A stretch of 64,000 nt of DNA from assembly GCA_015661005.1 (NCBI GenBank), contig JACTTX010000002.1, positions 856 to 64,855 of the forward strand, written 5' to 3'. This document shows, piece by piece, positions 7,597 to 53,781 of this stretch. The notes under the pieces were generated by a model. That model was not told the DNA's origin. It searched no databases and saw only the letters and a program-made list of their open reading frames with translations. How positions within the stretch are numbered: the first letter of the stretch is position 1; each line of letters begins with the position of its first letter. Source of the DNA: Candidatus Magasanikiibacteriota bacterium (GTDB taxonomy: Bacteria > Patescibacteriota > Patescibacteriia > Magasanikbacterales > JACTTX01). Made by a program: the position numbers and the translations under genes.

Positions 7597-7612
7597 ATTC
7601 CCGCTTAAAACT

Positions 7613-8164: not shown

Positions 8165-8165
8165 A

Positions 8166-8555
8166 TTAGTAGACCTCGCAGATCATCTCTCCGCCCAACT
8201 TCTGTTTGTGCGCTTCTTTATTGGTCATCAAACCCTTGGACGTTGAAAGAATAGATATGCCAAACCCGCTCTGCACCACTTTAAGCTCATCCGCCTTAAC
8301 ATAAGCGCGATGCCCGGGCTTGCTGACGCGCTGAATGGAAGTAATGGCTGGCGCGCGTTCCGCATACTTCAGACGAATCCTAATCTGCGCAAATTTATCA
8401 TCCGTTTTTTCCACGCGACCCACATATCCTTCCCGTTCTAAAATCTGCGCGATATTCATTTTTAATTTTGAGTGCGGCAAAACCACCAGCGGCATATGGG
8501 CCTGCTGGGCGTTTCTGATTCTCGTCAACATGTCGGCGATGGGATCGGTCATCAT
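8166..8555 (-). CDS. rpsH: 30S ribosomal protein S8
   Basis: MTDPIADMLTRIRNA is the uS8 N-terminus. Start trimmed to an internal Met of ORF 8166..8672. Confidence 0.88.
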   Translation of the reverse strand: MMTDPIADMLTRIRNAQQAHMPLVVLPHSKLKMNIAQILEREGYVGRVEKTDDKFAQIRIRLKYAERAPAITSIQRVSKPGHRAYVKADELKVVQSGFGISILSTSKGLMTNKEAHKQKLGGEMICEVY

Positions 8556-8557
8556 AT

Positions 8558-8743
8558 TTACCAACTTGATTTTGTAATTCCCGGAATCTCTCCGCGATTG
8601 GCAAGTTCCCGGAAGCAAATGCGGCACATTCCGAAATCGCGCATAAAACCGCGCGCCCGTCCGCAACGCCAACAGCGATGCACAACGCGGGTGCGGAATT
8701 TTGGTTTCTTTTGCGACTTGGAAATTTGTGCTTCAGTTGCCAT
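8558..8743 (-). CDS. rpsZ: 30S ribosomal protein S14 type Z (zinc-binding)
   Basis: 61 aa with CWRCGRARG...CRIC zinc ribbon. Confidence 0.9.
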   Translation of the reverse strand: MATEAQISKSQKKPKFRTRVVHRCWRCGRARGFMRDFGMCRICFRELANRGEIPGITKSSW

Positions 8744-8763
8744 ACAATAATTAATGTTGTCTG

Positions 8764-9312
8764 TTATTTGTTGTTTGTTGTCTGTTGGAATGGAAACCCC
8801 AGGGCTTTGGCCAGCGCCAGACCTTCCGCAGAATTCCTGGCGGTTGTCCGCACCGTCACCTGTACGCCATGGACGGCTTCCACTTCATCCGGACGAATTT
8901 CCGGAAAGGCCAAGTGTTCGGTGAAACCAAGAGAAAAATTTCCTCCGGCATCCATAATCTTTGGCGAGAGACCGCGAAAGTCCCTCACCCGAGGAAAGGT
9001 CACGTGCACGAGCTTCTCCAAAAAGTCGTACATGCGCTTTCCCCGCAAAGTGCATTTGAGGCCAACCACTTGACCCTCGCGCACTTTGAAATTAGAAATG
9101 GATTTACGCGCCTTGGTCTCCGTCGGCTTTTGCCCGCAGATGCGCGTCAAGGTCTTCACGGCCGCGTCCACATTTTTCTGATCCTTGCTCATCTTGCCGA
9201 CGCCAACATGAACCACCACCACCGAAACTTTTGGCGCCTGCATGATGTTTTTGTAACCAAACTCGGCCTGGAGTTTTGGGATGATTTCTTTTTGGTAGCG
9301 TTCTTTCAACAT
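8764..9312 (-). CDS. rplE: 50S ribosomal protein L5
   Basis: MLKERYQKEIIPKLQAEFGYKNIMQAPKV is the uL5 N-terminus. Confidence 0.92.
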   Translation of the reverse strand: MLKERYQKEIIPKLQAEFGYKNIMQAPKVSVVVVHVGVGKMSKDQKNVDAAVKTLTRICGQKPTETKARKSISNFKVREGQVVGLKCTLRGKRMYDFLEKLVHVTFPRVRDFRGLSPKIMDAGGNFSLGFTEHLAFPEIRPDEVEAVHGVQVTVRTTARNSAEGLALAKALGFPFQQTTNNK

Positions 9313-9325
9313 ATCATTTCACGAT

Positions 9326-9577
9326 TTATTTGGCCCGATGACGCACCGGCTTACCGGCCTCATTCAATAGCATCACGTTGGAAGCGTCAAGGGGCGCCGC
9401 CAATTCAATCTTTTGTCCTTTTTCTCCGCGCTTGCGGCTACGCAAATGCTTTTTCATGACATTGGCGCCTTCCACGACAACTTTATTGGCCGCTTTGAAG
9501 ACCTGAAGTACCTTGCCGGTTTTCCCGGCATCTTTTCCGCGCATTACTTTGACATTGTCTCCGGTTTTAATCTTCAT
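9326..9577 (-). CDS. rplX: 50S ribosomal protein L24
   Basis: MKIKTGDNVKVMRGKDAGKTGKVLQV is a KOW motif; 83 aa. Confidence 0.9.
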   Translation of the reverse strand: MKIKTGDNVKVMRGKDAGKTGKVLQVFKAANKVVVEGANVMKKHLRSRKRGEKGQKIELAAPLDASNVMLLNEAGKPVRHRAK

Positions 9578-9602
9578 ATTCTTTATTCGTCAAATAGTGA
9601 TG

Positions 9603-9974
9603 TTAGAGCACTTCCGGCGCGAGCGAGATTATCTTCTGAAACCCGCGGGTGCGCAATTCCCGAGCGACCGGCCCAAAAATGCGACTGCCCTTTGGTTCAC
9701 CATTGGCTTTATCAATGATGACGGCCGCGTTCTCGTCAAAACGGATGGCTGTGCCGTCCGGCCGCGTGCTTTCTTTGCGCGTCCGCACCAAAACGGCGTG
9801 GACAACATCTCCTTTTTTCACCAATCCGTGCGGCACCGCTTCTTTGACGGCGCACGTAACAACATCCCCCACGCGGGCATAATGTTTTTTATACCCGCCG
9901 AGGACGCGAATACACTGGAGCTTTTTAGCGCCGGTATTATCCGCAACCACGAGCATGGAACGATGTTGAATCAT
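9603..9974 (-). CDS. rplN: 50S ribosomal protein L14
   Basis: [17 protein letters not shown] is the uL14 N-terminus; start overlaps the rpsQ stop as ATGA. Confidence 0.92.
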
Positions 9975-10207
9975 ATAACGCGCCAACGTTTATCTTTGGA
10001 GAGCGGCCTAGTTTCCACAAACCGCACAACGCTTCCAACCGGATGCCCGCCTTTTTCATCATGAACTTTGTACTTTTTGGAAACGACGTACTGTTTGTGA
10101 TATTTGGGATGCGCTTTCGTCCGGTCAACCTTAACCACGATGGTCTTGACCATCTTATTGGAAACAACTGTTCCCGTAAATTCTCTTTTGTGTCCAGTAT
10201 GCTCCAT
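9971..10207 (-). CDS. rpsQ: 30S ribosomal protein S17
   Basis: 78-aa OB-fold sequence [16 protein letters not shown]....HPKYHK. Confidence 0.9.
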
Positions 10208-10224
10208 ATTCCGTTCGTAATGTT

Positions 10225-10422
10225 TTATGTTTTATGTTTTATGTTAGCTTTAAGAATAGTCAGCGCTTGCGCCACCGTTTTTTTGGCATCGCGATACTGA
10301 TGGGAACGTTTCATCTGCCCTTGCATTGACTTAAGTTTCAATTCCAACACACTCCGGCGGCTGTCCGCAAGAATCCGCTGTAACTCCGCTTCCGATTTTT
10401 CCCGCAATTCTTTCATCTTCAT
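10225..10422 (-). CDS. rpmC: 50S ribosomal protein L29
   Basis: MKMKELREKSEAELQRIL is the uL29 N-terminus. Start set to the internal Met of ORF 10225..10521. Confidence 0.85.
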   Translation of the reverse strand: MKMKELREKSEAELQRILADSRRSVLELKLKSMQGQMKRSHQYRDAKKTVAQALTILKANIKHKT

Positions 10423-10846: not shown

Positions 10847-11551
10847 TCACGATTCAGTCCTGACCTTTTGTTTATCCTTTTGTTCACCGGCGCCGCGGAC
10901 AGTCGGTTTTTTCTTTTCTTCAAAGATATCCCCGCGATAAATCCAGACCTGAATGCCGATGGTGCCGTAAATTGTCCGGGCAATACCATACGCAAAATCA
11001 ATGTCGGCGCGCAAGCTGGTCAAGGGAATTTTTCCGCTGGCCAATTTTTCCGTACGCGCGATTTCCGCGCCGTTCAACCGTCCGGACATCCGCACTTTGA
11101 CACCATGGGCTCCGGCTTTCTCAATGCGATCAATCCCCATTTTCATCACGCGACGAAAAGGCATGCGTTTTTCAATATCCGTAATCATATTCTGCACCAC
11201 GATCGGCGCGGAAAGCGAGGGACGCGTAACTTCCTGAATGTTCAACTTGACATTGCCTTTGCCGAAGAATTTTTTCTGGAGCTTTTTGCGCAATTCTTCC
11301 GCGCCGGCGCCGCCCCGCCCAATCACGAACCCGGGCTTGGCCACGTTCAAAGTGATGGTTACTTCATGCTGATTGCGTTCAATCACCACGGAATCCAAAC
11401 CGGCGTCTTTCAGTTCACCGGTTAAAAATTCGCGGACATGAAAATCCTGCGCCAAAAGTTTTGGCATTTCTTTTTTACGCGAATACCATCGCGAGTCCCA
11501 AGTGCGGGTCATGCCAATGCGGAAAATTTTTGGGTGGACTTTGTGAGGCAT
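10847..11551 (-). CDS. rpsC: 30S ribosomal protein S3
   Basis: KH domain and MPHKVHPKIFRIGM N-terminus. Start set to the internal Met of ORF 10847..11629. Confidence 0.88.
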   Translation of the reverse strand: MPHKVHPKIFRIGMTRTWDSRWYSRKKEMPKLLAQDFHVREFLTGELKDAGLDSVVIERNQHEVTITLNVAKPGFVIGRGGAGAEELRKKLQKKFFGKGNVKLNIQEVTRPSLSAPIVVQNMITDIEKRMPFRRVMKMGIDRIEKAGAHGVKVRMSGRLNGAEIARTEKLASGKIPLTSLRADIDFAYGIARTIYGTIGIQVWIYRGDIFEEKKKPTVRGAGEQKDKQKVRTES

Positions 11552-11555
11552 ATAT

Positions 11556-11978
11556 TTACGCGATCTTTTTGACGCGCTGGACGCGTTTTTCTTTGTCGAC
11601 GCCGACGAATTTCTTTCCCGGACACGCAACCTTCATCTTTGGCGGTTCTGTGTCCAGCACGAGCATGATGTGCGAAGTGCGTTTTCTGATGGGTGCGGCC
11701 CGCCCATGCGCGCGCGGATGCGAACGTTTGAGTACCGGACCGCCGTCAACGTAAGCGGTTTTGACCCACAAGTCAGCGGCATTCAACTGCTGATTGTGTT
11801 CGGCGTTGGCAATGGCGGACTTGAGAAGTTTCCAAACCGGCTTGGCCGCGGCTTTCGGCATAAATTGCAGATGCGTCAAAGCGTCATTCACGCGTAAGCC
11901 GCGAACAACATCAACCACTAATCGCACCTTGCGGGGCGACATGCGGAGCATTCGGAGTTGTGCGCGGGTTTGACTCAT
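11556..11978 (-). CDS. rplV: 50S ribosomal protein L22
   Basis: uL22 fold; MSPRKVRLVVDVVRG at the N-terminus. Confidence 0.9.
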   Translation of the reverse strand: MSQTRAQLRMLRMSPRKVRLVVDVVRGLRVNDALTHLQFMPKAAAKPVWKLLKSAIANAEHNQQLNAADLWVKTAYVDGGPVLKRSHPRAHGRAAPIRKRTSHIMLVLDTEPPKMKVACPGKKFVGVDKEKRVQRVKKIA

Positions 11979-16905: not shown

Positions 16906-17391
16906 TTACTCCACCGGCTCAAAAAAGAATTGCGTTTCCGTTTTCTTTTCTTCTTTTTCCGGCCCCAAAGCCGCTGGCGATTCTTCATCTTGCGTCTCCA
17001 TCAAAATATCTCTAAGCGCGGACAACCCGCTCCAAGCCGGAGCCGCGACCGGTTCCAAGTATTGCGGTTCTTCTGAAGGTGTCACTTCTAAAGGTGCCAC
17101 TTCTAAATTTTCTCTTACAGACGCCGCCAAATCCTCCGTCGTTTTTTCTTTCTTTTGAGTTTCTCTCCAGAGCGCCACATCGCGATTGATTTTATCAATC
17201 AACTGTTCACCGCCGGTTTCTATTGGCGCCGCCGGAGCCGCCGAGTTTCCGTCCACTGCGGGCAAAACTAACCGTTCATATTCAGGCACGGTCATGACGA
17301 CGTAGGAATTATCACCGTCAATCACAATGGCGCGATCTCCGGTTTTTTGAATGAGTTTAAGGAGGCGTTCAATGGGAAACATAGTGAACAT
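16906..17391 (-). CDS. hypothetical protein, Phd/YefM-like N-terminal fold followed by an acidic disordered tail
   Basis: N-terminus ERLLKLIQKTGDRAIVIDGDNSYVVMTVPEYERL resembles the Phd/YefM antitoxin fold. The rest is E/P/A-rich. A sigma70-like promoter (TTGACT-17-TAAAAT) lies about 30 nt upstream. Confidence 0.4.
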   Translation of the reverse strand: MFTMFPIERLLKLIQKTGDRAIVIDGDNSYVVMTVPEYERLVLPAVDGNSAAPAAPIETGGEQLIDKINRDVALWRETQKKEKTTEDLAASVRENLEVAPLEVTPSEEPQYLEPVAAPAWSGLSALRDILMETQDEESPAALGPEKEEKKTETQFFFEPVE

Positions 17392-25353: not shown

Positions 25354-26145
25354 GTGATAAAACCCTACTTCGATAAACCGAATTTCAAACTCTACCGCGC
25401 TAACAGCATTGACCTGCTGGCTGAACTCCCCGAGAACTCCGTGGATATGATTTTTGCCGACCCGCCCTATCTTCTATCAAACGGCGGTTTTACCGTTCAC
25501 GCCGGTAAAATGGTAAGTGTAAATAAAGGCGAATGGGATGTCAGCAATGGTCTAAAAAAAGATTTTGAATTTCAACTGACATGGATTGAAGCGTGCCGCC
25601 GAGTATTGAAACCTGGCGGCACCATTTGGATTAGTGGCACCTACCACTCAATTTACCAATGCGGCTTTGCGTTGCAGGTTAAACACTTTCATATTCTTAA
25701 TGATATTGCGTGGTTTAAACCAAATGCCTCGCCAAATTTAAGTTGCCGTTTTTTTACGGCTAGCCACGAGACACTTATTTGGGCTCGCAAAGAAAAGAAA
25801 GCCAAACACAAATTTAATTACGAGACAATGAAAAATGGCCATTGGCCAGATGATTTTTTGAAAAAACCCAATCTACAAATGCGCAGTGTGTGGGCTGTAT
25901 ATCCGCCAAAAAGTTCGGAAAAAATCCATGGGAAACATCCGACCCAAAAACCGATTGATTTACTCGTACGTATTATTATGGCCAGCACTGACAGAGGCGA
26001 TGTAATTTTAGATCCTTTTACCGGCTCATCAACGACAGGTTTAGCGGCTATGCTAAACGATCGAAAATTCATCGGGATTGATTTAGAAAAAAAATACCTG
26101 GACTTATCAATCAAACGTTACAACGACTTAAAAAAATTGATATGA
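25354..26145 (+). CDS. type II DNA methyltransferase, beta-class N6-adenine (or N4-cytosine) MTase
   Basis: Motif IV FADPPY at the N-terminus and the AdoMet motif ILDPFTGSSTTG near the C-terminus give the beta-class order. DPPY favours N6-adenine. Strongly AT-rich. Confidence 0.85.
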   Translation: MIKPYFDKPNFKLYRANSIDLLAELPENSVDMIFADPPYLLSNGGFTVHAGKMVSVNKGEWDVSNGLKKDFEFQLTWIEACRRVLKPGGTIWISGTYHSIYQCGFALQVKHFHILNDIAWFKPNASPNLSCRFFTASHETLIWARKEKKAKHKFNYETMKNGHWPDDFLKKPNLQMRSVWAVYPPKSSEKIHGKHPTQKPIDLLVRIIMASTDRGDVILDPFTGSSTTGLAAMLNDRKFIGIDLEKKYLDLSIKRYNDLKKLI

Positions 26146-26666
26146 AAAAACGCGGAAAAGGCGGGGCAAACACACAAACAGGATTAAGATTTGAAAGCAA
26201 AGTTGATTTTTTGACTTTTATAAAAAACCAAGAAAAGTACAGCGTCAAAGGCGCTGTTATTTTTTATGATGGCAAAAAGGTCGGTCTAACTTTTAAAAAA
26301 CACGGATTTTACAAATATCTGGGGGAGAAAGGAATTGATTACAAAGAAATAATTTCACAAAAATTGCTTCCGGATGACGCAATATTTGTTATTGCTAATA
26401 ACACCATGCACATTATTGAAATTAAATTCCAAGAAGGAAGCGGATCAACTGATGAAAAATTACAAACTTGCGATTTTAAAATAAAACAATACAGAAAATT
26501 GTTATCAAGATTGAATGCGGAGGTTAAATATATTTACATCTTGAACGAGTGGTTCAAAAAACCAGGGTACAAAGATGTATTGGACTACATCATCTCCGTT
26601 GAGGGTTGCGCCTACTATTTTAATTATCTGCCTTTGCAAAAAATTGGATTGCCAGTGCCAAAATAA
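26142..26666 (+). CDS. putative type II restriction endonuclease (PD-(D/E)XK)
   Basis: Start overlaps the MTase stop (ATGA). 174 aa with PDDAIFVIANNTMHIIEIK, a PD...EIK nuclease motif. Same AT-rich composition. Confidence 0.5.
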   Translation: MKKRGKGGANTQTGLRFESKVDFLTFIKNQEKYSVKGAVIFYDGKKVGLTFKKHGFYKYLGEKGIDYKEIISQKLLPDDAIFVIANNTMHIIEIKFQEGSGSTDEKLQTCDFKIKQYRKLLSRLNAEVKYIYILNEWFKKPGYKDVLDYIISVEGCAYYFNYLPLQKIGLPVPK

Positions 26667-27432: not shown

Positions 27433-27609
27433 ATGGCAAAAATCTGCATTGCCTGCGGCCGCGGCCCGGTCATTGGCGCCTCGCGCAGTCACTCCAACAT
27501 CAAATCAAAAAAGTGGGTCTATCCAAATTTGCAATGGAAACGCGTTGATAATAAACGCGTGCGTCTTTGCACCAGTTGCATTAAGACAAAAATTAAAAAA
27601 GTCAGATAA
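27433..27609 (+). CDS. rpmB: 50S ribosomal protein L28
   Basis: MAKICIACGRGPVIGASRSHSNIKSKKWVYPNLQ matches bL28. ATG at 27433 lies inside ORF 27307..27609. Confidence 0.85.
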   Translation: MAKICIACGRGPVIGASRSHSNIKSKKWVYPNLQWKRVDNKRVRLCTSCIKTKIKKVR

Positions 27610-27611
27610 GC

Positions 27612-27684
27612 AAAAAGGACAGCGCATTGCAAATAGCGTGTTCTTCAATCAAGAACGCCATTGGCAATGCGCTGTCCTTTTTTG
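27612..27684. terminator. bidirectional intrinsic terminator / palindromic element, copy A
   Basis: 14-bp perfect outer stem GGACAGCGCATTGC/GCAATGCGCTGTCC around the inner core CGTGTTCTtCAATCAAGAACG. Flanked by an A-run on the 5' side and a T-run on the 3' side, between convergent rpmB and 27701..28174. Confidence 0.6.
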
Positions 27685-27700
27685 TCCCTTTGTCCATCTG

Positions 27701-28174
27701 TCACTCAAACCGAATTTCAATTTGATCCTTGTCTTTCATTTTATAATTTTCAAAGTCGCTGTTCGGCGCGCCGTTCACAAAAAATTTAACCGTGCCGTCC
27801 GACCCGTTGCACTGGTCAAAAATACAATCGCGATCAAACTTTTTTCCCCAGATGCCAAAAAATCGGCCGAGCTTAGTGTCACTTTCATGCACTGTGCCGC
27901 CGTATTCCAGATGAATAATGCCGTCGGCGGCATGGGTGTGTAGCGGACTTTCCACCGGCCCTAAACCCACTTCTTCCGGAATTTCTTGCGCTACACCTTT
28001 GATAGAGATGGCAAGATGCGGATGCCAGTGAATACCAGAACGAGAAATAATTTGATCCCCGCTCACAGTTGCTCCATTTTCTTGGGCGGCGTTTCCTTTA
28101 TGCGCCACCAGCCAACCAAAGCCGGCAATGACCGCAACGACGGCAATAATTTCCAAAATAATTTTCTTGTTCAT
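27701..28174 (-). CDS. hypothetical membrane-anchored protein with HWHPH motif
   Basis: N-terminal TM helix, then GIHWHPHLAI...HTHAADGIIHLEYGG His-rich motifs suggesting metal binding. Last gene of the BlaI-headed operon. Confidence 0.5.
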   Translation of the reverse strand: MNKKIILEIIAVVAVIAGFGWLVAHKGNAAQENGATVSGDQIISRSGIHWHPHLAISIKGVAQEIPEEVGLGPVESPLHTHAADGIIHLEYGGTVHESDTKLGRFFGIWGKKFDRDCIFDQCNGSDGTVKFFVNGAPNSDFENYKMKDKDQIEIRFE

Positions 28175-28176
28175 AG

Positions 28177-28785
28177 TTATTGGTGGTGAGAGTTATGTTC
28201 AGCGGCGGACATAGTGTTCGGCGCCAGTGGAACGGAAACGGCCGCTGTCCGCGCTGACGGCGTCGCGACGGTCATTTCTTTTTTCACTGTCGCGATCAAC
28301 CATTGATTATACACAAGCAAAACTATAATAACCGCGCCAACGGTTCTTGGCAACGTTAGCCAACGGCTTTGAAGAAGGATAGCGCCCAAAGAAAAAATTG
28401 CCGCGCCGTATCCAATCCCTTGAAACCAGAGACGCAGGCCGGTGATATCCGGCATCCACGGCAATGCCGCCAAGAGCAATCCGGCATTCAAGGTCAAAAG
28501 ATTTTTTGTGAGCGTCGTCCGGTGTCCGCGATAAGCCAAAAATCCCAGAAGCAAAAAAATTATACCAGCCACCCAAAAATATTTCTGATACGTTACGGCA
28601 AACATGAAGGGCAGAAAATTGAGCGTCAATCCAAGCGACGCCAAGACAGTTACAATCCCTAAACATACCGAATGACAAACCGACGGCGCACTGCCAAGCG
28701 AACTCAAAGCCGCGCAAAGAATCGACGAACGCTTGGCCGGCATTATAGCGGATGGTGTGGCGGGCATACTTTTTAACGCGCTCAA
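28177..28785 (-). CDS. hypothetical polytopic membrane protein
   Basis: 202 aa, about 5 hydrophobic helices, N-terminal Cys cluster (ILCAALSSLGSAPSVCHSVC). Confidence 0.5.
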   Translation of the reverse strand: MSALKSMPATPSAIMPAKRSSILCAALSSLGSAPSVCHSVCLGIVTVLASLGLTLNFLPFMFAVTYQKYFWVAGIIFLLLGFLAYRGHRTTLTKNLLTLNAGLLLAALPWMPDITGLRLWFQGIGYGAAIFSLGAILLQSRWLTLPRTVGAVIIVLLVYNQWLIATVKKEMTVATPSARTAAVSVPLAPNTMSAAEHNSHHQ

Positions 28786-28786
28786 A

Positions 28787-29125
28787 TTAACAGCCGCCGA
28801 CCATATCCGGCAGAGCGGCGTTGCTTCCCGCGGCGGCAGCCGGAGCGGCGGACGACGCGCCGCCGGTAGCCGCCTTCACGGTCAAAGCGCCGGCTTTGGA
28901 TTTCAAACTGTACAATTGCACCGTCTGAAAGATGGTGACAATCGCCAAAAGCGCCAAAACAATCACCTGCATGTTCAGTTTTGGAATGCTGATCGTTAAA
29001 GTGCGGGCGGCGCTTTGCGGCGCTGACGCATTTGGCGACGCGGCGGCAGGCGCGACTGGCGTGCCGGACGCGTTAGCCGCGGCTGGCGCTTGTCCCTCCG
29101 AAAACGCGTGATTAAAGTAGTCCAT
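28787..29125 (-). CDS. hypothetical small membrane protein ending in GGC
   Basis: 112 aa; Ala/Pro-rich with one TM helix and a C-terminal MVGGC. Confidence 0.4.
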   Translation of the reverse strand: MDYFNHAFSEGQAPAAANASGTPVAPAAASPNASAPQSAARTLTISIPKLNMQVIVLALLAIVTIFQTVQLYSLKSKAGALTVKAATGGASSAAPAAAAGSNAALPDMVGGC

Positions 29126-29150
29126 AAGATTGAATTAAAGAATTAATAAA

Positions 29151-30461
29151 TTAAAGTTTGAAGCCGTGCATACCGTCGCTCCCCGCGCCGCCGTGATTGG
29201 CATGACCCAAAACATTTCCTCGTCCGGTGGCCAAAAGATAATCTTCAATCACGCCTTTCGGATACCAAACACCTTTCCAACGCTGAAGCTCGCCTAAAAT
29301 TTCCTCATCGGAATATTTATCGCCGTAATTTTTCAAGAGATATTTGGCAATGCTCCTCCATGCTTGGGCATGGCGACAGCCGCAATTGTTGATGTGAGTA
29401 ACGCGCGTCGGTCCGCCACAGCAATAATCGCAAGTCATCGTGCTGATAATTTTTTCAAAGCGCGATTCCAACGCGCCGTCCAAAGTGATTTGCGATTCAT
29501 ATGACTGCCAGCGTTCCAATGATCCCTCTCCGTCATCAAAAGAAATTCCTTCCGGCGCGTAAAAAGGGACGCCAGTTGGCACCATCACCACCCGCGCGTC
29601 CGCCACCGTGTCTCCGGTGTTGGGCTCGGCCGGAACTTCGGTGATGGTGGGCCACGAACCCAAGGTGGTGGTGCGCCCGTCCGGATTTAATTTGGTGGAA
29701 ATAATTTGTTTGGCGGCCGCCGCTGATGGTTTAAACAGATTCGCAATGGCGGACAACCCGGTTGTTTTTAAACCCATCGCCAACGCGGCTTGTCCAATCA
29801 TAAAGTGATTGAAAGTGAGAACGATGATCAACACGGCTGTCACCATACTTTCAATGGAGAAAATTTTAGGCAAAACTTCCGCCGGGCGCGACGTATTTTC
29901 TTCAGACGCATTTTCTTCCATTGCTTTGTCCGGAATTTCGCAGTCGGAACATTCGGCGTTCATGGCTGCCGCCGATTTTTTTGCCGAATACATTGTTGTG
30001 AAAGCCAAAAAACCAATGCTCGCGATTTTAAACTCCAATCCTTTCAACGGAAAAGCGGCTACACCACTCGCCACGCCGAGGAGTTGCAATAAAAATGCGC
30101 CGCAGATCGGGCAAGCGGAACCGAACGCGCCAAAAATCGCGCCGAAACTACCAACGCTCCCGATTTTTATTTTTCCCAATCGCGAATGCCGCCAATGCCA
30201 AGCCGTAAACGCGGCGGCCGCGCCGAACAGCAAAATCATTATGACGGTGAGCAAAATATAAGTGACGGCGTAAGCCACGCTGAAACGCCCGAAATCTCCC
30301 GTTTTAGTCATGCTGATAAACTGCCCGATAGTGGTAACTTGAAGAAACAGCCAATAATTCAGATACGCAAACCCCAAAGCGGCAACCAACGCCAACCAGC
30401 GGTAAAACCGCGTTTTGAAAACCAAACGGCCGAAAGAAATTGTTTGTTTCAACAAATTCAT
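29151..30461 (-). CDS. Cys/His-rich polytopic membrane protein with CPIC motif and C-terminal putative metal-binding domain
   Basis: N-terminal half has about 6 TM helices with GSACPICGAFLLQLL. The C-terminal soluble part carries CDYCCGGP...NNCGCRHAQ and HANHGGAGSDGMHG. Confidence 0.5.
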   Translation of the reverse strand: MNLLKQTISFGRLVFKTRFYRWLALVAALGFAYLNYWLFLQVTTIGQFISMTKTGDFGRFSVAYAVTYILLTVIMILLFGAAAAFTAWHWRHSRLGKIKIGSVGSFGAIFGAFGSACPICGAFLLQLLGVASGVAAFPLKGLEFKIASIGFLAFTTMYSAKKSAAAMNAECSDCEIPDKAMEENASEENTSRPAEVLPKIFSIESMVTAVLIIVLTFNHFMIGQAALAMGLKTTGLSAIANLFKPSAAAAKQIISTKLNPDGRTTTLGSWPTITEVPAEPNTGDTVADARVVMVPTGVPFYAPEGISFDDGEGSLERWQSYESQITLDGALESRFEKIISTMTCDYCCGGPTRVTHINNCGCRHAQAWRSIAKYLLKNYGDKYSDEEILGELQRWKGVWYPKGVIEDYLLATGRGNVLGHANHGGAGSDGMHGFKL

Positions 30462-30462
30462 A

Positions 30463-31614
30463 TCACTGGGGTGTTCCGGTGGCGCTCAAACCTGCCGCCG
30501 CGGTCTTGGCGGCCGGACGAATCACCAAATTTTTAGTCAGGTCTTTATAGATAACATCGCCAATGGCCTCAATTTTTCTGAAAACGTAAGCGCCGTCTTT
30601 TTCCACGGTTCCGACCGCCGGCCAAACGCTTTTGAGCTGGTTGTACACATCTGCATCTTTAGAAAGAATAATTGTCGGCACGTTGACGATTTTATATTGA
30701 TTGACCAATCCTTTTCCTTGAGGCGAAGACACATCAACTACTTCACTGTTGGTCACCGCCACGCCCATACTGGATAAAAGGCCATTGTGTTTGGCAGGAT
30801 CATAACATTCATTACACGATTTGTCGGCGAGCATGGTCATTCGCAATTTGCCGAGAATTTTATTTTGCGCCAGATCAAAATATGGCGGGATCATTTGCCG
30901 GAAAACGTAAACGCCGTCGCTTTGCGTTTCACCGATAGTTAAATTTTTAAAGATGTCATAATACTTCACGTCCTCGGAAAGAATGATTTGCGGAAAAGCG
31001 GTAATTTTATATTTTGCCGTCAAACTTTTTCCATCTTCGGAAAAAGGCGACACGGTTTTGGTATCGGCAATAAAAATGCCGGCATTCTTCATTTGATTGA
31101 TGAGCTCGCTCGGCTGCGCACAGCCAACGCATAATTTAGGATCGTTCAAAATAGTAACATAAATTTTTCCGCGCTCGGCGCCGTCTTTGGGATCAATGTA
31201 GACCGGCGGGGTTTTGGTGAAAATAAAATTATTGTTAGCCAGTCGGCCGTTTTGCGCAATAAACCCCGCCAGCTTTTCATTGGTAACGTCTCCGCTCGCC
31301 ACAAAAGTTGGAAGCCGCTCCAGTCCAAAATCCGCCACCAGTTTTTTCCCTTCTTCGCTGTCAAAGATCAGCGTCTTTTCCGCCGTCACTTCCACCGGAA
31401 ACTTTTTAAACGCCGCCACGGCTTTCTGAATATCAAAACAATCTGGACAACTCGGCGTCGTCAATATCTGGAGTGTGATTTTTGCCGGTTGATTTTTTTC
31501 TTCGGCCACTTTGATTTGTTTGCCAATGGCGGTGTTAGTTTGAAAAGAAATAATAGCGCCAGACAGTGCGGCAAGAAAAGCAATCCCAAGTAGCGCGCGA
31601 TTGACAGTGATCAT
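30463..31614 (-). CDS. membrane-anchored protein with three tandem thioredoxin-like CxxC domains
   Basis: Three ~110-aa internal repeats, each with a CxxC (SCPDC, CVGC, CNEC) and a downstream cis-Pro-like motif (LPTFVAS, FPQIIL, VPTIIL). Confidence 0.7.
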   Translation of the reverse strand: MITVNRALLGIAFLAALSGAIISFQTNTAIGKQIKVAEEKNQPAKITLQILTTPSCPDCFDIQKAVAAFKKFPVEVTAEKTLIFDSEEGKKLVADFGLERLPTFVASGDVTNEKLAGFIAQNGRLANNNFIFTKTPPVYIDPKDGAERGKIYVTILNDPKLCVGCAQPSELINQMKNAGIFIADTKTVSPFSEDGKSLTAKYKITAFPQIILSEDVKYYDIFKNLTIGETQSDGVYVFRQMIPPYFDLAQNKILGKLRMTMLADKSCNECYDPAKHNGLLSSMGVAVTNSEVVDVSSPQGKGLVNQYKIVNVPTIILSKDADVYNQLKSVWPAVGTVEKDGAYVFRKIEAIGDVIYKDLTKNLVIRPAAKTAAAGLSATGTPQ

Positions 31615-32432
31615 AAATTATAGGGAATTTTGTGAATCGGATTTAAAATCATTGGCGACTCGGCGGATTGACTTTCCGAACACGGCAAAACGGCAACCGT
31701 TTGCGCTTTTGTTGACGGGACAAAGGCCGCCAGTAAAATCGCGAGTACCATAACGCTCACAAAAATCTTTGTCAAGGTGAGCGGCGCAAATTTCAATCCC
31801 CTGCCTTCCAAAACAGCGATGCGAATGGCAAGAGTTGACTGTTCGGCAAATCCAAAAAATGCGGCCGGTGCGGACGGACGTCCCGAGAGTTTAATCAGAG
31901 CCGAGACCAAAGAAATTTTTCCCTTCTCACCGTTTTGAGCGGCGGCATCAGCGGCCACTTCTCTGGCGGCCAGCCATCTTTTTTCAAAATCCGCCACGAT
32001 TGGCAAAAACCAAAAAGCGGTGCGTGCGGCGTGAAGCAAAGCGCCCATCAGCGGATCATATGATTGCTGATGATGCCGCTCATGAGATAAAACCGCCAGC
32101 AGTTCCGCCTCCGTCAGAACGCTCGCCGCCGAGGTACTCAAATAAATTTGCGGTTTAAAAAATCCAACGCAAAAACATTTTGATTGATCGGACGCAAAAA
32201 TCCGAATATTATTTATTTGCTTGTTTTCAATCAAAGCGGCAAGACGCGGCGGAACCGCCGCCGACGCCAACAATGAGAGTGAGCGCAATAATTTTCCGGT
32301 GGCCAGAACTTGGCGAACCAAAGAAACAATAAAAATTCCTAAAACCGACAATCCGGCCGCCCAACCAACGCCATGCCAAAAATTGCCATGCGTAATCGCG
32401 GAAAAAAAATTGTCACAGCGAGTGATCGCCAT
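31611..32432 (-). CDS. BlaR1/MecR1-like M56 peptidase-domain membrane protein (no sensor domain)
   Basis: HERHHQQ is an HExxH in an M56-like 4-TM context, and the gene lies immediately downstream of a BlaI-family repressor. At 273 aa it lacks a C-terminal sensor domain. Confidence 0.6.
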   Translation of the reverse strand: MAITRCDNFFSAITHGNFWHGVGWAAGLSVLGIFIVSLVRQVLATGKLLRSLSLLASAAVPPRLAALIENKQINNIRIFASDQSKCFCVGFFKPQIYLSTSAASVLTEAELLAVLSHERHHQQSYDPLMGALLHAARTAFWFLPIVADFEKRWLAAREVAADAAAQNGEKGKISLVSALIKLSGRPSAPAAFFGFAEQSTLAIRIAVLEGRGLKFAPLTLTKIFVSVMVLAILLAAFVPSTKAQTVAVLPCSESQSAESPMILNPIHKIPYNL

Positions 32433-32433
32433 A

Positions 32434-32826
32434 TTAACTCCGGCCGCGTTTTAAATCCGCCAACAACTTTTTCAACTTCTTGCGATCAACTTTGTCCGTC
32501 TCTTCCAAAAAACAAGCAATGGCAACCTCTCCGAATTCTTTTCTAATCCGTCCGAGCGTTTCTCCGGCCAGCGTCCGATAAAATTCTTGCCGCGTCAGAC
32601 GCGGACAAAAAACATGCTGACCGGCGCGAATATTTTTTTTGAGCACGCCTTTCTTAACCAGCCGATTCATAATGGTCATGATGGTGGTATAGGCGACATC
32701 AATTTTTTTATGCAAATGATCAACGACGTCCCGCACCGAACCCCCCTCCGGACGCGACCACAAAATATCCAGGATGTCTTTTTCCCGTTCGCCAAGCAAG
32801 CGTCCAACATGAGACGGTGTCCGCAT
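32434..32826 (-). CDS. BlaI/MecI/CopY-family transcriptional repressor
   Basis: LGEREKDILDILWSRPEGGSVRDVVDHL...YTTIMTIMNRLVKKGVLKK winged helix of the penicillinase-repressor family. No C-terminal Cys cluster, so BlaI-like rather than CopY-like. Confidence 0.8.
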   Translation of the reverse strand: MRTPSHVGRLLGEREKDILDILWSRPEGGSVRDVVDHLHKKIDVAYTTIMTIMNRLVKKGVLKKNIRAGQHVFCPRLTRQEFYRTLAGETLGRIRKEFGEVAIACFLEETDKVDRKKLKKLLADLKRGRS

Positions 32827-32837
32827 ATAAAAATTTA

Positions 32838-32857
32838 TCTACTACATTATGTAGAAG
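32838..32857. promoter_or_regulatory. putative BlaI-family operator (palindrome CTACA-TTA-TGTAG)
   Basis: The 13-bp perfect dyad contains TACA/TGTA half-sites like bla/mec/cop boxes. It sits 12 bp upstream of the blaI-like start and shares the 11-mer TACTACATTAT with 33311..33325. Confidence 0.5.
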
Positions 32858-32920
32858 ACAAGTCCAACGGTCAACCGGTTTTATCCACAGCGCAAAATTT
32901 TACCTCAACCATTCCCGTTT

Positions 32921-33301
32921 TCATCTGACCCACTCCCGCCACGATTTTGGCCAACCGCGTAGCAACAACAAGGCCAGAGGCGCGCCCCAGTTGGCCCATC
33001 TTTCCACAAAATCCCAAAACGATTCGCCAACCAACGGACGTAAAATGGCGGTCCAGAAACCCCAAACGGCGGCCCAAGCCAGCACACCGCGCACCGGCTT
33101 CACCAAAATAATCAAAGCCACAATCAGATCCATAATACCAATCGCCAACAAAATTTTGCCGGCCAAGACGGCGTCTGTCTGCAAAATTTCCTGAATCCAT
33201 TTGATCCACTGCGCTTTGCCTTGAATGGCAAAGACGCCGTGTCCGACGAATTCTCCAAAAATCGCGAGCCGCAAGGCCCAATGAGCAAGTTTATTTTCCA
33301 T
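32921..33301 (-). CDS. DoxX-like small membrane protein
   Basis: 126 aa with 3-4 TM helices and DoxX-like topology; weak assignment. Confidence 0.4.
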   Translation of the reverse strand: MENKLAHWALRLAIFGEFVGHGVFAIQGKAQWIKWIQEILQTDAVLAGKILLAIGIMDLIVALIILVKPVRGVLAWAAVWGFWTAILRPLVGESFWDFVERWANWGAPLALLLLRGWPKSWREWVR

Positions 33302-33310
33302 ATATTTATT

Positions 33311-33325
33311 TTACTACATTATACC
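33311..33325. promoter_or_regulatory. second TACTACATTAT box (operator half-site)
   Basis: ATTTATTTTACTACATTATACC lies 10 bp upstream of the DoxX-like start and shares ATTTAT..TACTACATTAT with the blaI operator region. Confidence 0.4.
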
Positions 33326-33329
33326 ACGA

Positions 33330-33716
33330 TTACTTGACGCCCTCCGGAAGAACGCAACCGCTTTCCCGCGCCAATCCGCTTAATCCTAATTCCCCCGCTA
33401 ACTTGCGACCGTCGGAAAAGATCCAGGTCGGATATTTTTCCACACCCTTATCAAGGCATGTTTGGGGATTATTCGGACACTCCACGTACTTCACAAATTG
33501 GAACGCGTCCCCGAAAGCCGCTTTTTCATTCTGGCAATGCGGACACCAGGCGGCGCCGTACATCGTGATGTCTTTTGTGGCAAGGCATTGGGCAAAAGAA
33601 TCCAGCGGCGCGGTGGCTGATTTTTTTTCCGACCATCTTGATATCGTCACAATTCCCGCAACAATGAGCGCGACTACCCCCGCCGAAATTAATAATGATT
33701 TCATATCATACAGCAA
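33330..33716 (-). CDS. membrane-anchored thioredoxin-like protein (VKOR-associated Trx-like type)
   Basis: MYGAAWCPHCQNEKAAFGDAF...YVEC closely matches the Trx-like domain usually fused to bacterial VKOR homologues. Confidence 0.7.
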   Translation of the reverse strand: MLYDMKSLLISAGVVALIVAGIVTISRWSEKKSATAPLDSFAQCLATKDITMYGAAWCPHCQNEKAAFGDAFQFVKYVECPNNPQTCLDKGVEKYPTWIFSDGRKLAGELGLSGLARESGCVLPEGVK

Positions 33717-33747
33717 ATATTTGAATTTTGAAAGTGACCTGCCAGTG

Positions 33748-33882
33748 GCGAATGGAAAGGCGCAAATGTCGTGTTGCTTAGAACAATAACGCTACAGTGA
33801 CTGGAGAATGGAAGGACGCAAATATCGTGTTCTCCAATCAAGAACGATATTTGCGTCCTTCCATTCTCTATTCTCTATTCTC
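33748..33882. repeat. palindromic element copy B (plus a degenerate half copy upstream)
   Basis: 24-bp perfect inverted repeat GAGAATGGAAGGACGCAAATATCG/CGATATTTGCGTCCTTCCATTCTC around the same inner core CGTGTTCTcCAATCAAGAACG as copy A. It is preceded by a partial left-arm copy and followed by a (TTCTCTA)n run. Confidence 0.6.
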
Positions 33883-33884
33883 TG

Positions 33885-34340
33885 TCAACAACATTGTTCC
33901 ATCTTCTTCTCCAGATCTTCCACGCGCCGCTGACTCCCGCCGGACTTACCAACACGCAGGCATATGGCGGCCGTCACGAGCATCACCGTCAAAGCCAAAA
34001 GCAGAATCCACCACCAACTTTGAGTCACGCCATAAACGGCCGTGAAGCCGGCCGGAATAAAAATCATTTTCCAAGCGAGCGGCTTAATGTGCGGCGCCAG
34101 ATATTTCTCCGCTTGATAAGCAATGCCGACAACGGATCCGCCCATCAGAATTGTCGGCACAAAAAGATCAATCGTGAATCCCGCCGGATGCCAGCCGCCA
34201 AAATAAAGCGCCAACATCCAAATCCAAGTTCCGGCCGCACCGGCGCAAATTGGACACAAACGCTTGCCGGTCGCGCGGTTAAGCAGCGCCGCCAGCCCGG
34301 CAATCGTGTAAAGGGAAATTAAAGCGATGAGAATATTCAT
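33885..34340 (-). CDS. DsbB/VKOR-like candidate: small polytopic membrane protein with CPIC motif
   Basis: 151 aa, about 4-5 TM helices, LCPICAGAAG at a TM boundary, C-terminal QCC. Neighbours a Trx-like protein of the VKOR-partner type and CcdA. Confidence 0.4.
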   Translation of the reverse strand: MNILIALISLYTIAGLAALLNRATGKRLCPICAGAAGTWIWMLALYFGGWHPAGFTIDLFVPTILMGGSVVGIAYQAEKYLAPHIKPLAWKMIFIPAGFTAVYGVTQSWWWILLLALTVMLVTAAICLRVGKSGGSQRRVEDLEKKMEQCC

Positions 34341-46592: not shown

Positions 46593-46596
46593 ATTT

Positions 46597-46665
46597 GGGG
46601 ACAGTTCTAAAGGGGACACTTCTAAACGCAAAGCGTTTAGAAGTGTCCCCTTTAGAACTGTCCCC
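46597..46665. repeat. 69-bp perfect palindrome (33-bp arms, 3-nt loop)
   Basis: GGGGACAGTTCTAAAGGGGACACTTCTAAACGC-aaa-GCGTTTAGAAGTGTCCCCTTTAGAACTGTCCCC lies between the queA start and the mltG stop. Confidence 0.9.
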
Positions 46666-46673
46666 ATCCCATC

Positions 46674-49995: not shown

Positions 49996-50550
49996 TCAAT
50001 CACGATGGCACAAATTGTTAATCTGCTGCCTAATCCCATAACCGCGACAATGTTTCAGCACCCCCAGATACGATTGCAGACTTTGTTCAAACGCTCCATT
50101 TTCCAACAAACCTTGATTAAACTTTTCATATTTAATCTTCAAACGCTTCAATAACCGCCGCTTGGTCTTGGTTCTAAGAATTGTATAATGCGGGAACGTC
50201 ACATAACCCAAAAAATCAACGCCTTGATGCCACTTGCGGAGTACGATTTTTTTAGGGTGTAGCGTTAATTGCAGGTTGCTCTCTAAAAAATCCCGAATCA
50301 TTATGGTAATACTTTCTAAAAATATCTTGCTCCGCGCGATTACCACGATATCATCGGCATACCGAATATAATTTTGAAAGCCAAACCGTTTGGTGATAAA
50401 CTGATCCAGTTCATCGAGATAGATATTTGAGAACAGCTGACTGGTGAGATTCCCGAGCGGTATTCCCTTTCCTGGTTGGTTATGAAAGCTGTATACAATC
50501 TTTTCAATCAGTCCCATCAGCTTTTCGTCAGCAACGCGCCGCCTAATCAC
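49996..50550 (-). CDS. diversity-generating retroelement (DGR) reverse transcriptase, apparently 5'-truncated (motifs 4-7 and thumb only)
   Basis: GIPLGNLTSQLFSNIY carries the DGR-specific xGxxxSQ variant of RT motif 4. Motif 5 YADD (YIRYADDIVVIA) and motifs 6/7 plus thumb are present. The ORF starts with GTG directly after the TR hairpin, with an in-frame TAA four codons upstream. No fingers or motif A (N-terminal palm) region was found. Confidence 0.75.
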   Translation of the reverse strand: MIRRRVADEKLMGLIEKIVYSFHNQPGKGIPLGNLTSQLFSNIYLDELDQFITKRFGFQNYIRYADDIVVIARSKIFLESITIMIRDFLESNLQLTLHPKKIVLRKWHQGVDFLGYVTFPHYTILRTKTKRRLLKRLKIKYEKFNQGLLENGAFEQSLQSYLGVLKHCRGYGIRQQINNLCHRD

Positions 50551-50571: not shown

Positions 50572-50577
50572 CAAAGA

Positions 50578-50698
50578 CTTCGGGAGAAAGAGACACCAAG
50601 ATTGTCATTGGAGTTGTCCGGTTTCCGGTTGTTGACGTTCGCGCCATCGGCATTGAAGTTGCCAACGTTCACCAGCTTCCCATTAGACGAGCGGCGCT
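50578..50698 (-). repeat. DGR template repeat (TR), non-coding, AAY-codon-rich
   Basis: About 121 bp that is ~75% identical to the 3' ends of genes 50921..53770 and 53782..54747. Read in frame with the VRs it gives RRSSNGKLVNVGNFNADGANVNNRKPDNSNDNLGVSFSRS, with 13 AAC/AAT/AAA/AAG codons. Roughly 30 mismatches to each VR, all but 1-2 at TR adenines (coding strand). Confidence 0.85.
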
Positions 50699-50920
50699 CT
50701 CTACACCTCTCCTATCCAGGGCAAGGACAAGCGGCCAAATAAGGCCGGATGCTGTATGAGCATGTAGCGGCAGCCCGGTCGCCTCAAGCGACCAGATCCG
50801 CATGAGAAAAGTGTAAGCAGTCTTTAGATATTGGCGAGGCGCATCCGTGAACGCGCCTTCATTAGCCGAGATTAGTATACCGAAACCAAATCAAAGTTTC
50901 AAGACTCAAAGTTCAAAGTT

Positions 50921-53770: not shown

Positions 53771-53781
53771 AGTTCAAAGTT

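Follow-up and report, generated by a model that had tools for sequence, protein, structure and literature searches.

Palindromic hairpin elements with a conserved asymmetric apical core in a Candidatus Magasanikbacteria species

The window analyzed here is a 64,000-nucleotide stretch of contig JACTTX010000002.1 from a Candidatus Magasanikiibacteriota bacterium. It contains two long hairpins, copies A and B, both located at gene 3' ends (Table 1). Copy A begins after a gap of 2 nt from the stop codon of rpmB, and the stop codon of the facing gene lies 18 nt past its other end. The first-pass annotation of a long hairpin between convergent genes was thus correct. By direct reading, copy A has the layout AAAAAGGACAGCGCATTGCAAATAG-CGTGTTCTTCAATCAAGAACG-CCATTGGCAATGCGCTGTCCTTTTT, with 25-nt arms containing two mismatches and with A5 and T5 tracts within the outer 18 bp. 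Its 14-bp stem, GGACAGCGCATTGC, is bordered by A5 and T5-6. In an intrinsic terminator, a U-tract comes after a GC-rich stem; copy A has an A5 and a T6 tract, one per side, as in a bidirectional terminator, and could plausibly act as one. The predicted RNA fold of copy A reaches −43.4 kcal/mol on the plus strand and −46.9 kcal/mol on the minus strand.

Copy B is organized as GAGAATGGAAGGACGCAAATAT-CGTGTTCTCCAATCAAGAACG-ATATTTGCGTCCTTCCATTCTC, with a perfect part at 33804-33868 and imperfect pairing that reaches the ends given in Table 1. Its arms are perfect over 22 nt, or 24 bp when the CG of the core is included, and its predicted RNA folds reach −48.8 and −49.8 kcal/mol (plus and minus strand, respectively). 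It sits between two minus-strand genes and has no flanking T-run, as had been noted. A promoter-like site was observed at 33732-33705, between copy B and the thioredoxin-like gene.

Table 1. Features of the two hairpin loci in the window (CM: covariance model).
Feature	Position	Strand	Details
rpmB (ribosomal protein L28)	27433..27609	+	PF00830, 4.4e-12
Copy A, complete hairpin element	27612..27682	+	CM 79.6 bits
Copy A core, CGTGTTCTTCAATCAAGAACG	27637..27657	+	
Hypothetical protein HW383_103 (MBF8280330.1)	27701..28174	-	Convergent with rpmB
Thioredoxin-like gene	33330..33716	-	Downstream of copy B on the minus strand
Older, broken family member (half-copy upstream of copy B)	33733..33791	+	Left arm and core2; right arm absent
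Copy B, complete hairpin element	33796..33876	+	CM 86.5 bits
Copy B core, CGTGTTCTCCAATCAAGAACG	33826..33846	+	
(ATTCTCT)3 tandem run	33863..33883	+	Threefold repeat of the outer end of the right arm of copy B
Membrane-protein ORF	33885..34340	-	Copy B follows its 3' end on the minus strand

The half-copy upstream of copy B consists of a left arm (33733-33769, GTGAC..GGCGAATGGAAAGGCGCAAATGT) resembling that of copy B, followed by a second core variant, core2 (CGTGTTGCTTAGAACAATAACG, 33770-33791). The half-copy had been described as degenerate; it is real, but core2 is also carried by a complete hairpin elsewhere (metagenome locus L007, 1674-1739). Judging from its sequence, it belongs to the family as an older member whose core is variant, and is not a degenerate duplicate of copy B. 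The composite of half-copy and copy B is 89.5% identical over 105 nt to an unrelated locus, L008, whose flanks are unrelated. On the other side of copy B, the threefold heptamer run was also found as described; its first unit is the end of the right arm of copy B, and the run abuts the stop codon of the membrane-protein ORF.

Copies A and B are near-perfect hairpins that have in common an exact asymmetric 21-mer, CGTGTTCTYCAATCAAGAACG, and 27 of 29 bases are identical between them over GCAAATAKCGTGTTCTYCAATCAAGAACG. Even a search tolerating three mismatches finds the 21-mer exactly twice in the window, for an expected number of 0.02, and none of 100 shuffles contained two matches. It forms a 6-bp mini-hairpin with a 2-nt bulge and a 7-nt loop, which in copy A reads CG, TG bulge, TTCT, 7-nt loop, AGAA, CG. 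In the apical module, the core CGTGTTCTYCAATCAAGAACG is preceded by (G)CAAATnn and followed by nnATTTG(C). Both copies are predicted to fold stably, as RNA on either strand (z from −8.8 to −10.2) and as DNA (−29.5 to −30.7 kcal/mol, z from −10 to −12). These results are in agreement with the inner core and the self-complementarity first reported for the two copies. A simple terminator scan flagged neither of them, since stems of more than 20 bp and the core bulge make it blind to these hairpins. A putative IHF site at AATCAAGAAC was compared by eye with WATCAANNNNTTR and rejected, as the TTR part did not agree.

The core was detected at 12 further loci in two metagenomes, 11 of them in a single one (Ga0206225), which disposes of the possibility, raised with the first description, that only two copies exist and resemble each other by chance. 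At 10 of the 12 loci, the core is identical to that of copy B, and the copy A variant is found at L002 and L012. There are thus at least 13 distinct loci in one species (two in the window and 11 in Ga0206225) and one in a sister species. All loci but one (about 13 of 14) are intergenic, and most copies lie 0-70 nt past the stop codons of housekeeping genes. The adjoining genes are unrelated (SmpB, AtpB, YebC, ROK, an ABC binding protein, and others). Five metagenome contigs terminate in or at the element, as expected of a repeat that breaks assemblies.

The strict core gave no match in 185,579 GTDB species genomes, and the family is absent from the other Magasanikbacteria among them. With a looser pattern that takes in both core variants, 17 GTDB matches were obtained in unrelated phyla, none of which fits the covariance model, and these were rejected as chance. 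In viral contigs, the strict core gave no match and the looser pattern one chance match. A 34-bp perfect palindrome at 46596-46666 was also rejected as a member: it lacks the core and scores 31 bits on both strands, as a generic hairpin does. No armless core was found by the window search or the covariance-model search.

In an alignment of 11 copies, the invariant columns are those of the apical 21-mer. The arms are highly variable in length and sequence from copy to copy, yet each is self-complementary: 96.4% of the cells are paired, 21 of the 28 stem pairs show double changes, and 86 compensatory cells stand against two one-sided changes. Only three of 308 cells are G-U, and the covariation score is 0.756 versus 0.186 in shuffles. 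The different but self-complementary outer stems described for the two copies were thus confirmed. Almost purely Watson-Crick arms lacking G-U intermediates point to a DNA palindrome rather than an RNA helix. Template switching is known to homogenize inverted-repeat arms and to flip the spacers between them (PMC8604942, PMC8794818, PMC7202029), and such homogenization of a DNA palindrome would fit the "compensatory" stems better than selection on an RNA helix. Arm subfamilies (GTGACTGGCGAATGGAAGG... and GTTGAATAGTAACC...) recur at unrelated loci. The outer arm ends vary between copies and are common only within subfamilies, so that no terminal inverted repeat is shared by the family, and a second GCAAAT-like motif is overrepresented in the outer arms.

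Broken older copies lie beside half of the intact copies (7 of 14), as half-core motifs no more than 80 nt away (at most two mismatches, or three for the longer, right-hand motif); in the rest of the 64-kb window, there was one match at no more than one mismatch. Loci L004 and L007 contain the same composite, with an intact core in L004 and an extra hairpin replacing TCTCCAAT in L007, and their comparison shows one hairpin occupying the core loop of another. The bulge is lost in the outer layers (CGTTCTTG...CAAGAACG). Insertion junctions vary among the nested cases, with no single cleavage point and no consistent junction sequence.

The one intragenic copy lies in frame within holB in two sister species (L009 and L010). 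Past the hairpin, the reading frame continues into the C-terminal motif LxxN(I/V)HP(R/K)L, which does not vary among 13 homologues. The core is read as VLDWRTR in one species and as FLIGEHV in the other, in different frames, so it is the DNA that is conserved and not the peptide. A comparison of the two species shows 100% identity of the core, about 78% identity of the flanks, and unalignable arms. The protein with the holB copy (P0029) is MBF8280230.1, from the same MAG submission as the window protein MBF8280330.1, which places the holB copy in the genome of the window, and L009, from Ga0206225, is 99.9% identical to L034.

The orientation of the core follows strand composition. Of 13 contigs, 12 carry the forward core on their C-rich strand (p = 0.003) whatever the gene direction, in a sample that, like that of the arm motifs, is small and partly dependent, several of the about 16 copies in all being related (arm subfamilies, L009/L010 orthologues). 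This polarity is derived from the GC skew of 1-5-kb contigs and assumes that the G-rich strand is the leading strand in this lineage. The skew was calibrated by gene orientation with Pfam-verified genes only; in the window, 32 of the 36 majority-strand genes have a G-rich coding strand, and all three minority-strand genes have a C-rich one. Among the genes at the loci, the coding strand is C-rich in 3/3 with the forward core in sense and G-rich in 8/9 with its reverse complement (Fisher p = 0.018). The orientation exceptions L004, L006, and L007 track strand composition and not transcription.

An association with transposase genes or target-site duplications, which the first-pass annotation had suggested looking for, was not found among the window ORFs or at the hairpin ends. 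Scanned with Pfam and NCBIfam profiles, about 65 ORFs of the window revealed no transposase, HUH, Y1, or other candidate enzyme, and a profile scan of 10 ORFs from the loci no transposase. Likewise, neither an integron integrase nor a cassette array was seen in the window. The sole retroelement gene, lying 16 kb away, encodes a DGR-like reverse-transcriptase fragment, with no link to the hairpins seen. No consistent direct repeats were seen at the hairpin ends, the ends of the element being definable only from empty sites. No clean empty/filled orthologous site was found; the nearest relatives of the flanking proteins are at most 62% identical. For copy A, the homologues of the facing ORF, at most 62% identical, are on non-syntenic contigs that carry no family member. 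Rfam gave no match at the gathering threshold over the whole window, and below it only generic miRNA-precursor-like or long-hairpin noise.

Among the explanations first envisaged for the two copies, namely a mobile REP/MITE-like palindromic element, a structured RNA, or a protein-binding module, the dispersal, the nested and broken copies, the in-frame holB copy, and the strand-tied orientation favor the mobile element; that the copies are not independent terminators was upheld. We give about an even chance to the reading that makes copies A and B members of a family of non-autonomous, mobile palindromic elements 60-80 nt long, present in one Candidatus Magasanikbacteria (CPR) species and its sister, recognized at the apical core, handled as a single-stranded DNA (ssDNA) hairpin, and with homogenized arms. 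Recognition would involve the apical module alone, and the long arms would need only to pair. A trans-acting, structure-specific enzyme would handle the hairpin as ssDNA on one replication strand at the fork, the strand reading CGTTCTTGATTGGAGAACACG being predicted as the only one processed; an HUH/Y1-type enzyme (IS200/IS605 or RAYT-like) is our best guess, as a candidate only. Preferred landing sites may be hairpin loops that are tolerated, at gene 3' ends and in the core loops of older copies, the latter leading to nested, onion-like arrays. Template switching at replication would keep the arms perfect Watson-Crick complements, so that they drift fast and seem to covary. The hairpins at gene ends probably double as terminators or 3'-end hairpins. 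In this reading, the existence of the family, its strict palindromy as DNA, the nesting, the holB copy, and the polarity by strand are direct observations, and ssDNA transposition, the enzyme, and the side-effect on termination are proposed.

A more specific proposal, possible but distinctly less secure, is an undescribed replication-coupled ssDNA hairpin element. A predicted CPR enzyme would read only the asymmetric apical core and home into loops of the element's own kind, giving onion-like growth, while template switching would restore the stems to perfect palindromy: a mobile "loop" with a disposable "stem".

Several known systems resemble this family in part. REP/REPIN-RAYT systems (TnpA-REP, HUH-Y1) are also short extragenic hairpin repeats at gene 3' ends, multi-copy in one lineage and vertically persistent; their processing is believed to involve ssDNA hairpins, and they can also serve as 3' hairpins of mRNAs. 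The many extragenic copies per genome are found here too, in apparently tens versus hundreds of copies. However, REPs conserve the stem and a 5' GTAG-type tetranucleotide and leave the loop free, whereas here the apical loop/mini-hairpin is invariant and the long stems are free, with no conserved stem and 5' tetranucleotide; nor was a RAYT gene or REPtron arrangement seen among the window ORFs. IS200/IS605 elements and their miniature derivatives share an imperfect bulged hairpin as a possible recognition element and a replication-strand-biased orientation, reminiscent of coupling to the lagging-strand template (PMC5027513), to which their ssDNA transposition is coupled (PMC5027513, PMC6006769). 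The orientation bias was found here, with replication direction inferred from skew, but IS200/IS605 have distinct left and right subterminal hairpins, defined cleavage sites, and a tetranucleotide target, whereas here the hairpin is single and central, ends and target are not definable, and the window has no TnpA.

Rickettsia palindromic elements (RPE) can lie in frame in protein-coding genes and be translated (PMC10969869); the present family is similar in being palindromic repeats of a reduced-genome bacterium, translated in holB. RPE differ in their length of about 100-150 bp, their conserved peptide in a fixed frame, and their often intragenic position, whereas here one of about 14 loci is intragenic, two frames are used in two species with no conserved peptide, and the sequences are not similar. 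Terminator-like MITEs (Correia/NEMIS, SPRITE, RUP, BOX) are likewise small non-autonomous hairpin repeats at gene ends able to terminate or stabilize transcripts, but their conserved terminal inverted repeats and target-site duplications derive from a parent IS; in the present family, it is the termini that vary, and neither duplications nor a parent IS were found. Integron attC sites are also structure-recognized imperfect palindromes in which bulged bases mark the active strand; their sequence varies greatly except in a short conserved stretch, and their folding as ssDNA is tied to replication. Their layout is the opposite, with R''/R' boxes at the stem base and a variable centre; conservation here is apical and not basal, and no cassette array with intI was found in the window. 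Finally, quasipalindrome homogenization by template switching would explain the perfect Watson-Crick arms and the bulge loss in old layers (PMC8604942, PMC8794818), and possibly the flipped core of L006 relative to L008 and copy B. It is, however, a mutational process and not an element, and leaves unexplained how an identical 21-mer came to be at unrelated loci.

One alternative to the mobile hairpin, which we consider unlikely, is that the mobile unit is a roughly 37-nt apical module (GCAAATnn-core-nnATTTGC) homing into existing hairpin loops, the outer arms being host or target sequence. The outer stem of copy A with its A5/T6 tracts does resemble an ordinary bidirectional intrinsic terminator, every nested case is an insertion within a pre-existing hairpin loop, and arm variability would be expected to fit. 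However, the arm subfamilies recurring at unrelated loci, together with the copy B composite shared with L008 despite unrelated flanks, mean that at least part of the arms travels with the core, and no armless core was found.

It is rather improbable that the hairpins are a host cis-acting DNA element with replication polarity, whose core would be bound by a host protein as a priming/initiation, fork, or chromosome-organization signal and kept by selection rather than selfishness. The conserved loop on variable stems seen here may be analogous to plasmid ssoA-type single-strand origins, which likewise combine a conserved loop with variable stems; the strand-tied orientation would also fit. The identical core at the same place of holB in two species with diverged flanks is equally well explained by a host function under purifying selection, which counts against the mobile-element reading. 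Against such a signal, the in-CDS, broken, nested, and decaying copies are what selfish repeats typically show and would not be expected of a required signal, the 64-kb window has only two copies, and the family is absent from all other GTDB species genomes, other Magasanikbacteria included.

A similarly low probability is given to a structured RNA module, a 3'-UTR hairpin acting as a terminator, mRNA stabilizer, or protein-binding loop, with the stem kept by selection for RNA pairing and the loop as an RNA motif. The position of most copies shortly past stop codons, the very stable hairpins, the A and U tracts flanking copy A, and the same (reverse-complement) core orientation in the mRNA in 8 of 10 informative cases would agree with it. 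However, G-U pairs and one-sided changes are nearly absent, RNase III would be expected to act on perfect 22-29-bp stems, which are atypical of RNA motifs, and the U-tract is missing from most copies, including B. In addition, the orientation of L004, L006, and L007 does not follow transcription, the holB copy is translated in two different frames, and no Rfam family was found beyond hairpin noise. As for two independent terminators with loops alike by chance, the position of both copies at gene 3' ends and the terminator-like tracts of copy A are outweighed by the shuffles, the 12 further copies with the identical 21-mer, and the covariation score, which refute this explanation.

No REP- or MITE-like repeat family was found described in CPR/Patescibacteria in the literature searched. 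The mobile palindromic elements proposed here would be the first such family in CPR bacteria, indicating that small, compact genomes do carry a self-propagating hairpin repeat, which can sit even within the essential replication gene holB. Their layout is the reverse of that of REPs, with an invariant asymmetric tip and free, perfectly complementary stems. They may also represent a clean natural case of DNA-level arm homogenization mimicking RNA covariation, and thus call for caution when non-coding RNAs are sought by covariation. Should the strand polarity be confirmed, the core would be a replication-strand marker in a lineage whose origins are hard to place, and it may serve as a handle for finding the predicted enzyme that recognizes it.

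Two long, near-perfect hairpins (copies A and B) were found in the window, and 27 of their 29 central bases are identical, including an exact 21-mer, CGTGTTCTYCAATCAAGAACG, termed here the core. Within itself, the core forms an asymmetric mini-hairpin, composed of CG, a 2-nt TG bulge, TTCT, the 7-nt loop YCAATCA, AGAA, and CG. Both copies were predicted to fold very stably on either strand, as RNA (−43 to −50 kcal/mol, z about −9 to −10) as well as DNA (about −30 kcal/mol, z −10 to −12). These results bear out the first-pass annotation, which had described two palindromes with a common inner core from the sequence alone; the degenerate half-copy that it placed before copy B and the short tandem run after it were also recovered. 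Copy A, flanked by A5 and T6 tracts, separates the convergent rpmB and ORF 27701-28174, and a terminator role is plausible for it. Copy B is placed between two minus-strand genes; it lacks a T-run, and the absence of flanking runs had been noted. A BlaR1/M56 peptidase-like gene paired with a BlaI/MecI-type repressor (31611-32826, minus strand), with thioredoxin-like and membrane proteins on either side, lies between the two copies. Upstream of copy A, at a distance of about 1 kb, an N6/N4 DNA methylase overlaps with the 174-aa ORF behind it, which has no family match (25354-26666, plus strand); as minority-strand genes, the two may form a restriction-modification pair.

Hairpin copies and other repeats
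Feature	Location	Description
Copy A hairpin	27612-27682	Long, near-perfect
Copy B hairpin	33804-33868; imperfect extension to 33796-33876	Long, near-perfect
Half-copy upstream of copy B	33733-33791	Left arm like that of copy B, then second core variant CGTGTTGCTTAGAACAATAACG
(ATTCTCT)3	33863-33883	Repeat of the end of the copy B right arm
In-frame hairpin in holB	L009:973-1043; L010:1271-1331	Variable linker of DNA polymerase III delta'
Related 120-170-nt repeats	50576-50698; 50888-51055; 53749-53916	Near RVT_1 ORF

More than two copies exist, since a pattern scan of the metagenome collection found the core at 12 loci, 11 in metagenome Ga0206225 and one in Ga0105164. Every locus has the same layout: a variable outer arm of 18-29 nt, (G)CAAATnn, the invariant core, nnATTTG(C), and the complementary arm. 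A covariance model trained on 11 copies found one extra complete hairpin, with the second core variant (L007:1674-1739), and no members in the window beyond those already known. The strict core had no match among 185,579 GTDB species genomes, a looser pattern gave only chance matches that all failed the covariance model, nothing was found in viral contigs, and an Rfam search returned no family match. ORF 27701-28174 is MBF8280330.1 (HW383_103), from a MAG named 'Candidatus Magasanikbacteria bacterium', and the hairpin-bearing HolB protein P0029 is MBF8280230.1, with the same organism name and an accession 100 apart. The contig encoding P0029 (L034, sample ERZ27247315) matches L009 of Ga0206225 at 99.9% identity, and the window is likewise matched at 99.9% by a contig of ERZ27247315. 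Because the window and L009 both have such counterparts in this sample, the Ga0206225 copies were assigned to the window's species, which thus carries at least 13 loci of the family. The Ga0105164 contig, L010, is from a sister species, with about 78% identity in flanking DNA and 70% in HolB.

The copies adjoin unrelated housekeeping genes, mostly 0-70 nt past the stop codon, and five metagenome contigs terminate in or at the element. Seven of 14 intact copies have half-core motifs (≤2 mismatches, or ≤3 for the longer right-hand motif) no more than 80 nt away, and elsewhere in the 64-kb window a single match with ≤1 mismatch was seen. Loci L004 and L007 have a composite in common, in which the outer layer CAAATGG CGTTCTTG TCTTG is followed by a GTTGAATAGTAACC-type hairpin; its inner core is intact in L004, whereas in L007 another complete, perfect hairpin stands in place of its TCTCCAAT, an insertion into the core loop. 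Copy B recurs together with its upstream broken copy in L008 (89.5% over 105 nt) between unrelated flanks, suggesting that this composite has moved. A second GCAAAT-like motif in the outer arms exceeded shuffled arms (50.3 versus 9.5 ± 11.7, from non-independent copies) and is only suggestive of layered growth. Family scans of the window ORFs found no transposase, no target duplication was seen, and the homologue loci of ORF 27701-28174 yielded no empty site. From these few and partly related copies, we favour, at roughly even confidence, a non-autonomous palindromic mobile element recognised via its apical asymmetric core, with ssDNA fork processing, hairpin-loop landing, and template-switched arms. 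It is rather unlikely that the mobile unit is a 37-nt apical module only, entering hairpins already present.

In 12 of 13 contigs, the forward core is on the C-rich strand (binomial p = 0.003, rising to 0.006 with L009 and L010 counted once); the sole exception, L011, has a slightly negative skew in the 1 kb adjoining the element. When only Pfam-verified genes were used for calibration by gene orientation, the coding strand in the window was G-rich for 32 of 36 minus-strand genes and C-rich for all three plus-strand genes; the skew there belongs to the strand, not to coding. At the loci, genes with the forward core in sense (L004, L006, and L007) all had C-rich coding strands, versus G-rich ones for eight of nine genes with the reverse-complement core (Fisher p = 0.018). 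Since core orientation tracks C- or G-rich coding strands, the core follows the replication strand, not transcription. The G-rich strand, which carries the reverse complement of the core, CGTTCTTGATTGGAGAACACG, is by the usual rule, assumed for this lineage, the lagging-strand template, replication direction being read here from skew only. The same coupling to the lagging-strand template is known for IS200/IS605 ssDNA transposition (PMC5027513, PMC6006769). A host DNA signal with replication polarity is a slightly less probable explanation than the apical module.

The outer stems had been described as different in sequence and yet self-complementary, and the counts agree. In an ungapped alignment of the arms (308 cells, 28 pairs), 96.4% of cells were paired and 21 of 28 pairs were altered on both sides, with 86 compensatory cells versus two one-sided changes; the covariation score was 0.756, whereas shuffles gave 0.186 ± 0.025 and slid partners about 0.1. 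Selection on an RNA helix would lead through G-U intermediates. Because pairing is strictly Watson-Crick and G-U nearly missing (3/308 cells), the palindromy of the arms is that of DNA and not of an RNA helix. An RNA 3′-UTR module, as improbable as the host signal, is opposed by this pairing, by the scarcity of one-sided changes, and by the polarity of the core. Chance similarity of the cores can be dismissed, as the 21-mer (≤3 mismatches) matched only copies A and B in the 64 kb against 0.02 matches expected, and none of 100 shuffles gave two. Template switching between inverted-repeat arms homogenises them and can invert the spacer (PMC8604942, PMC8794818, PMC7202029), and strict Watson-Crick pairing is its expected product. 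In old outer layers, the 5′ half of the core now perfectly complements its 3′ half (CGTTCTTG...CAAGAACG) and the bulge is gone, and the L006 core, when compared with L008 and copy B, is inverted with respect to a flanking remnant of the second variant; both agree with template switching.

In L009 and L010, a hairpin lies within holB and the reading frame runs on through it, adding about 6-10 residues relative to homologues. The C-terminal LxxN(I/V)HP(R/K)L..LL, invariant in 13 Magasanikbacteria homologues, is then reached in frame. Gene callers annotate P0028 (323 aa) and P0029 (328 aa) straight through the hairpin, as does the NCBI record of the latter. Translation of the identical core gives VLDWRTR in one species and FLIGEHV in the other, with arms that are not alignable, and thus the DNA core and the open frame are conserved rather than a peptide. 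In-frame Rickettsia palindromic elements are a parallel (PMC10969869).

Other repeats were seen in the window. Between a yceG-like gene and queA lies a 34-bp palindrome (46596-46666), perfect and with a 3-nt loop, whose arms are each made of a tandem 15-mer pair (GGGGACAnTTCTAAA); it is without the family core and was absent from all metagenome loci examined. A similar tandem 15-mer pair, GGTGTCACTTCTAAA GGTGCCACTTCTAAA, lies at 17078-17107 inside the unannotated ORF 16906-17391(−), and six matches were seen in the window versus 0.41 expected. An RVT_1 fragment ORF (1.3e-12; 49996-50550, minus strand) adjoins three related repeats of 85-87% identity, one overlapping the 3′ end of gene 53782-54747(−). 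This arrangement looks like a diversity-generating retroelement with template and variable repeats; in a quick alignment, the mismatches had no clear adenine specificity. At 7200-10300, the longest ORFs are plus-strand without a family match; small ribosomal protein genes are to be expected between S5 (6611-7192) and S3 (10847-11629), and these ORFs are probably spurious antisense readings of them.

Literature searches found no account of such repeats in CPR bacteria. In its workings the family resembles REP/REPIN, IS200/IS605-derived, and RPE-type repeats, but it lacks their defining sequence features: here conservation is apical and not in stems or termini, the hairpin is single and central, and no conserved peptide is encoded. 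In the favoured reading of a mobile element, the apical core would be the recognition determinant, and a putative enzyme would act at the replication fork, on the element in its ssDNA hairpin form. The element would land in tolerated hairpin loops, at gene 3′ ends and in elements of its own kind, and template switching would keep its arms perfect.
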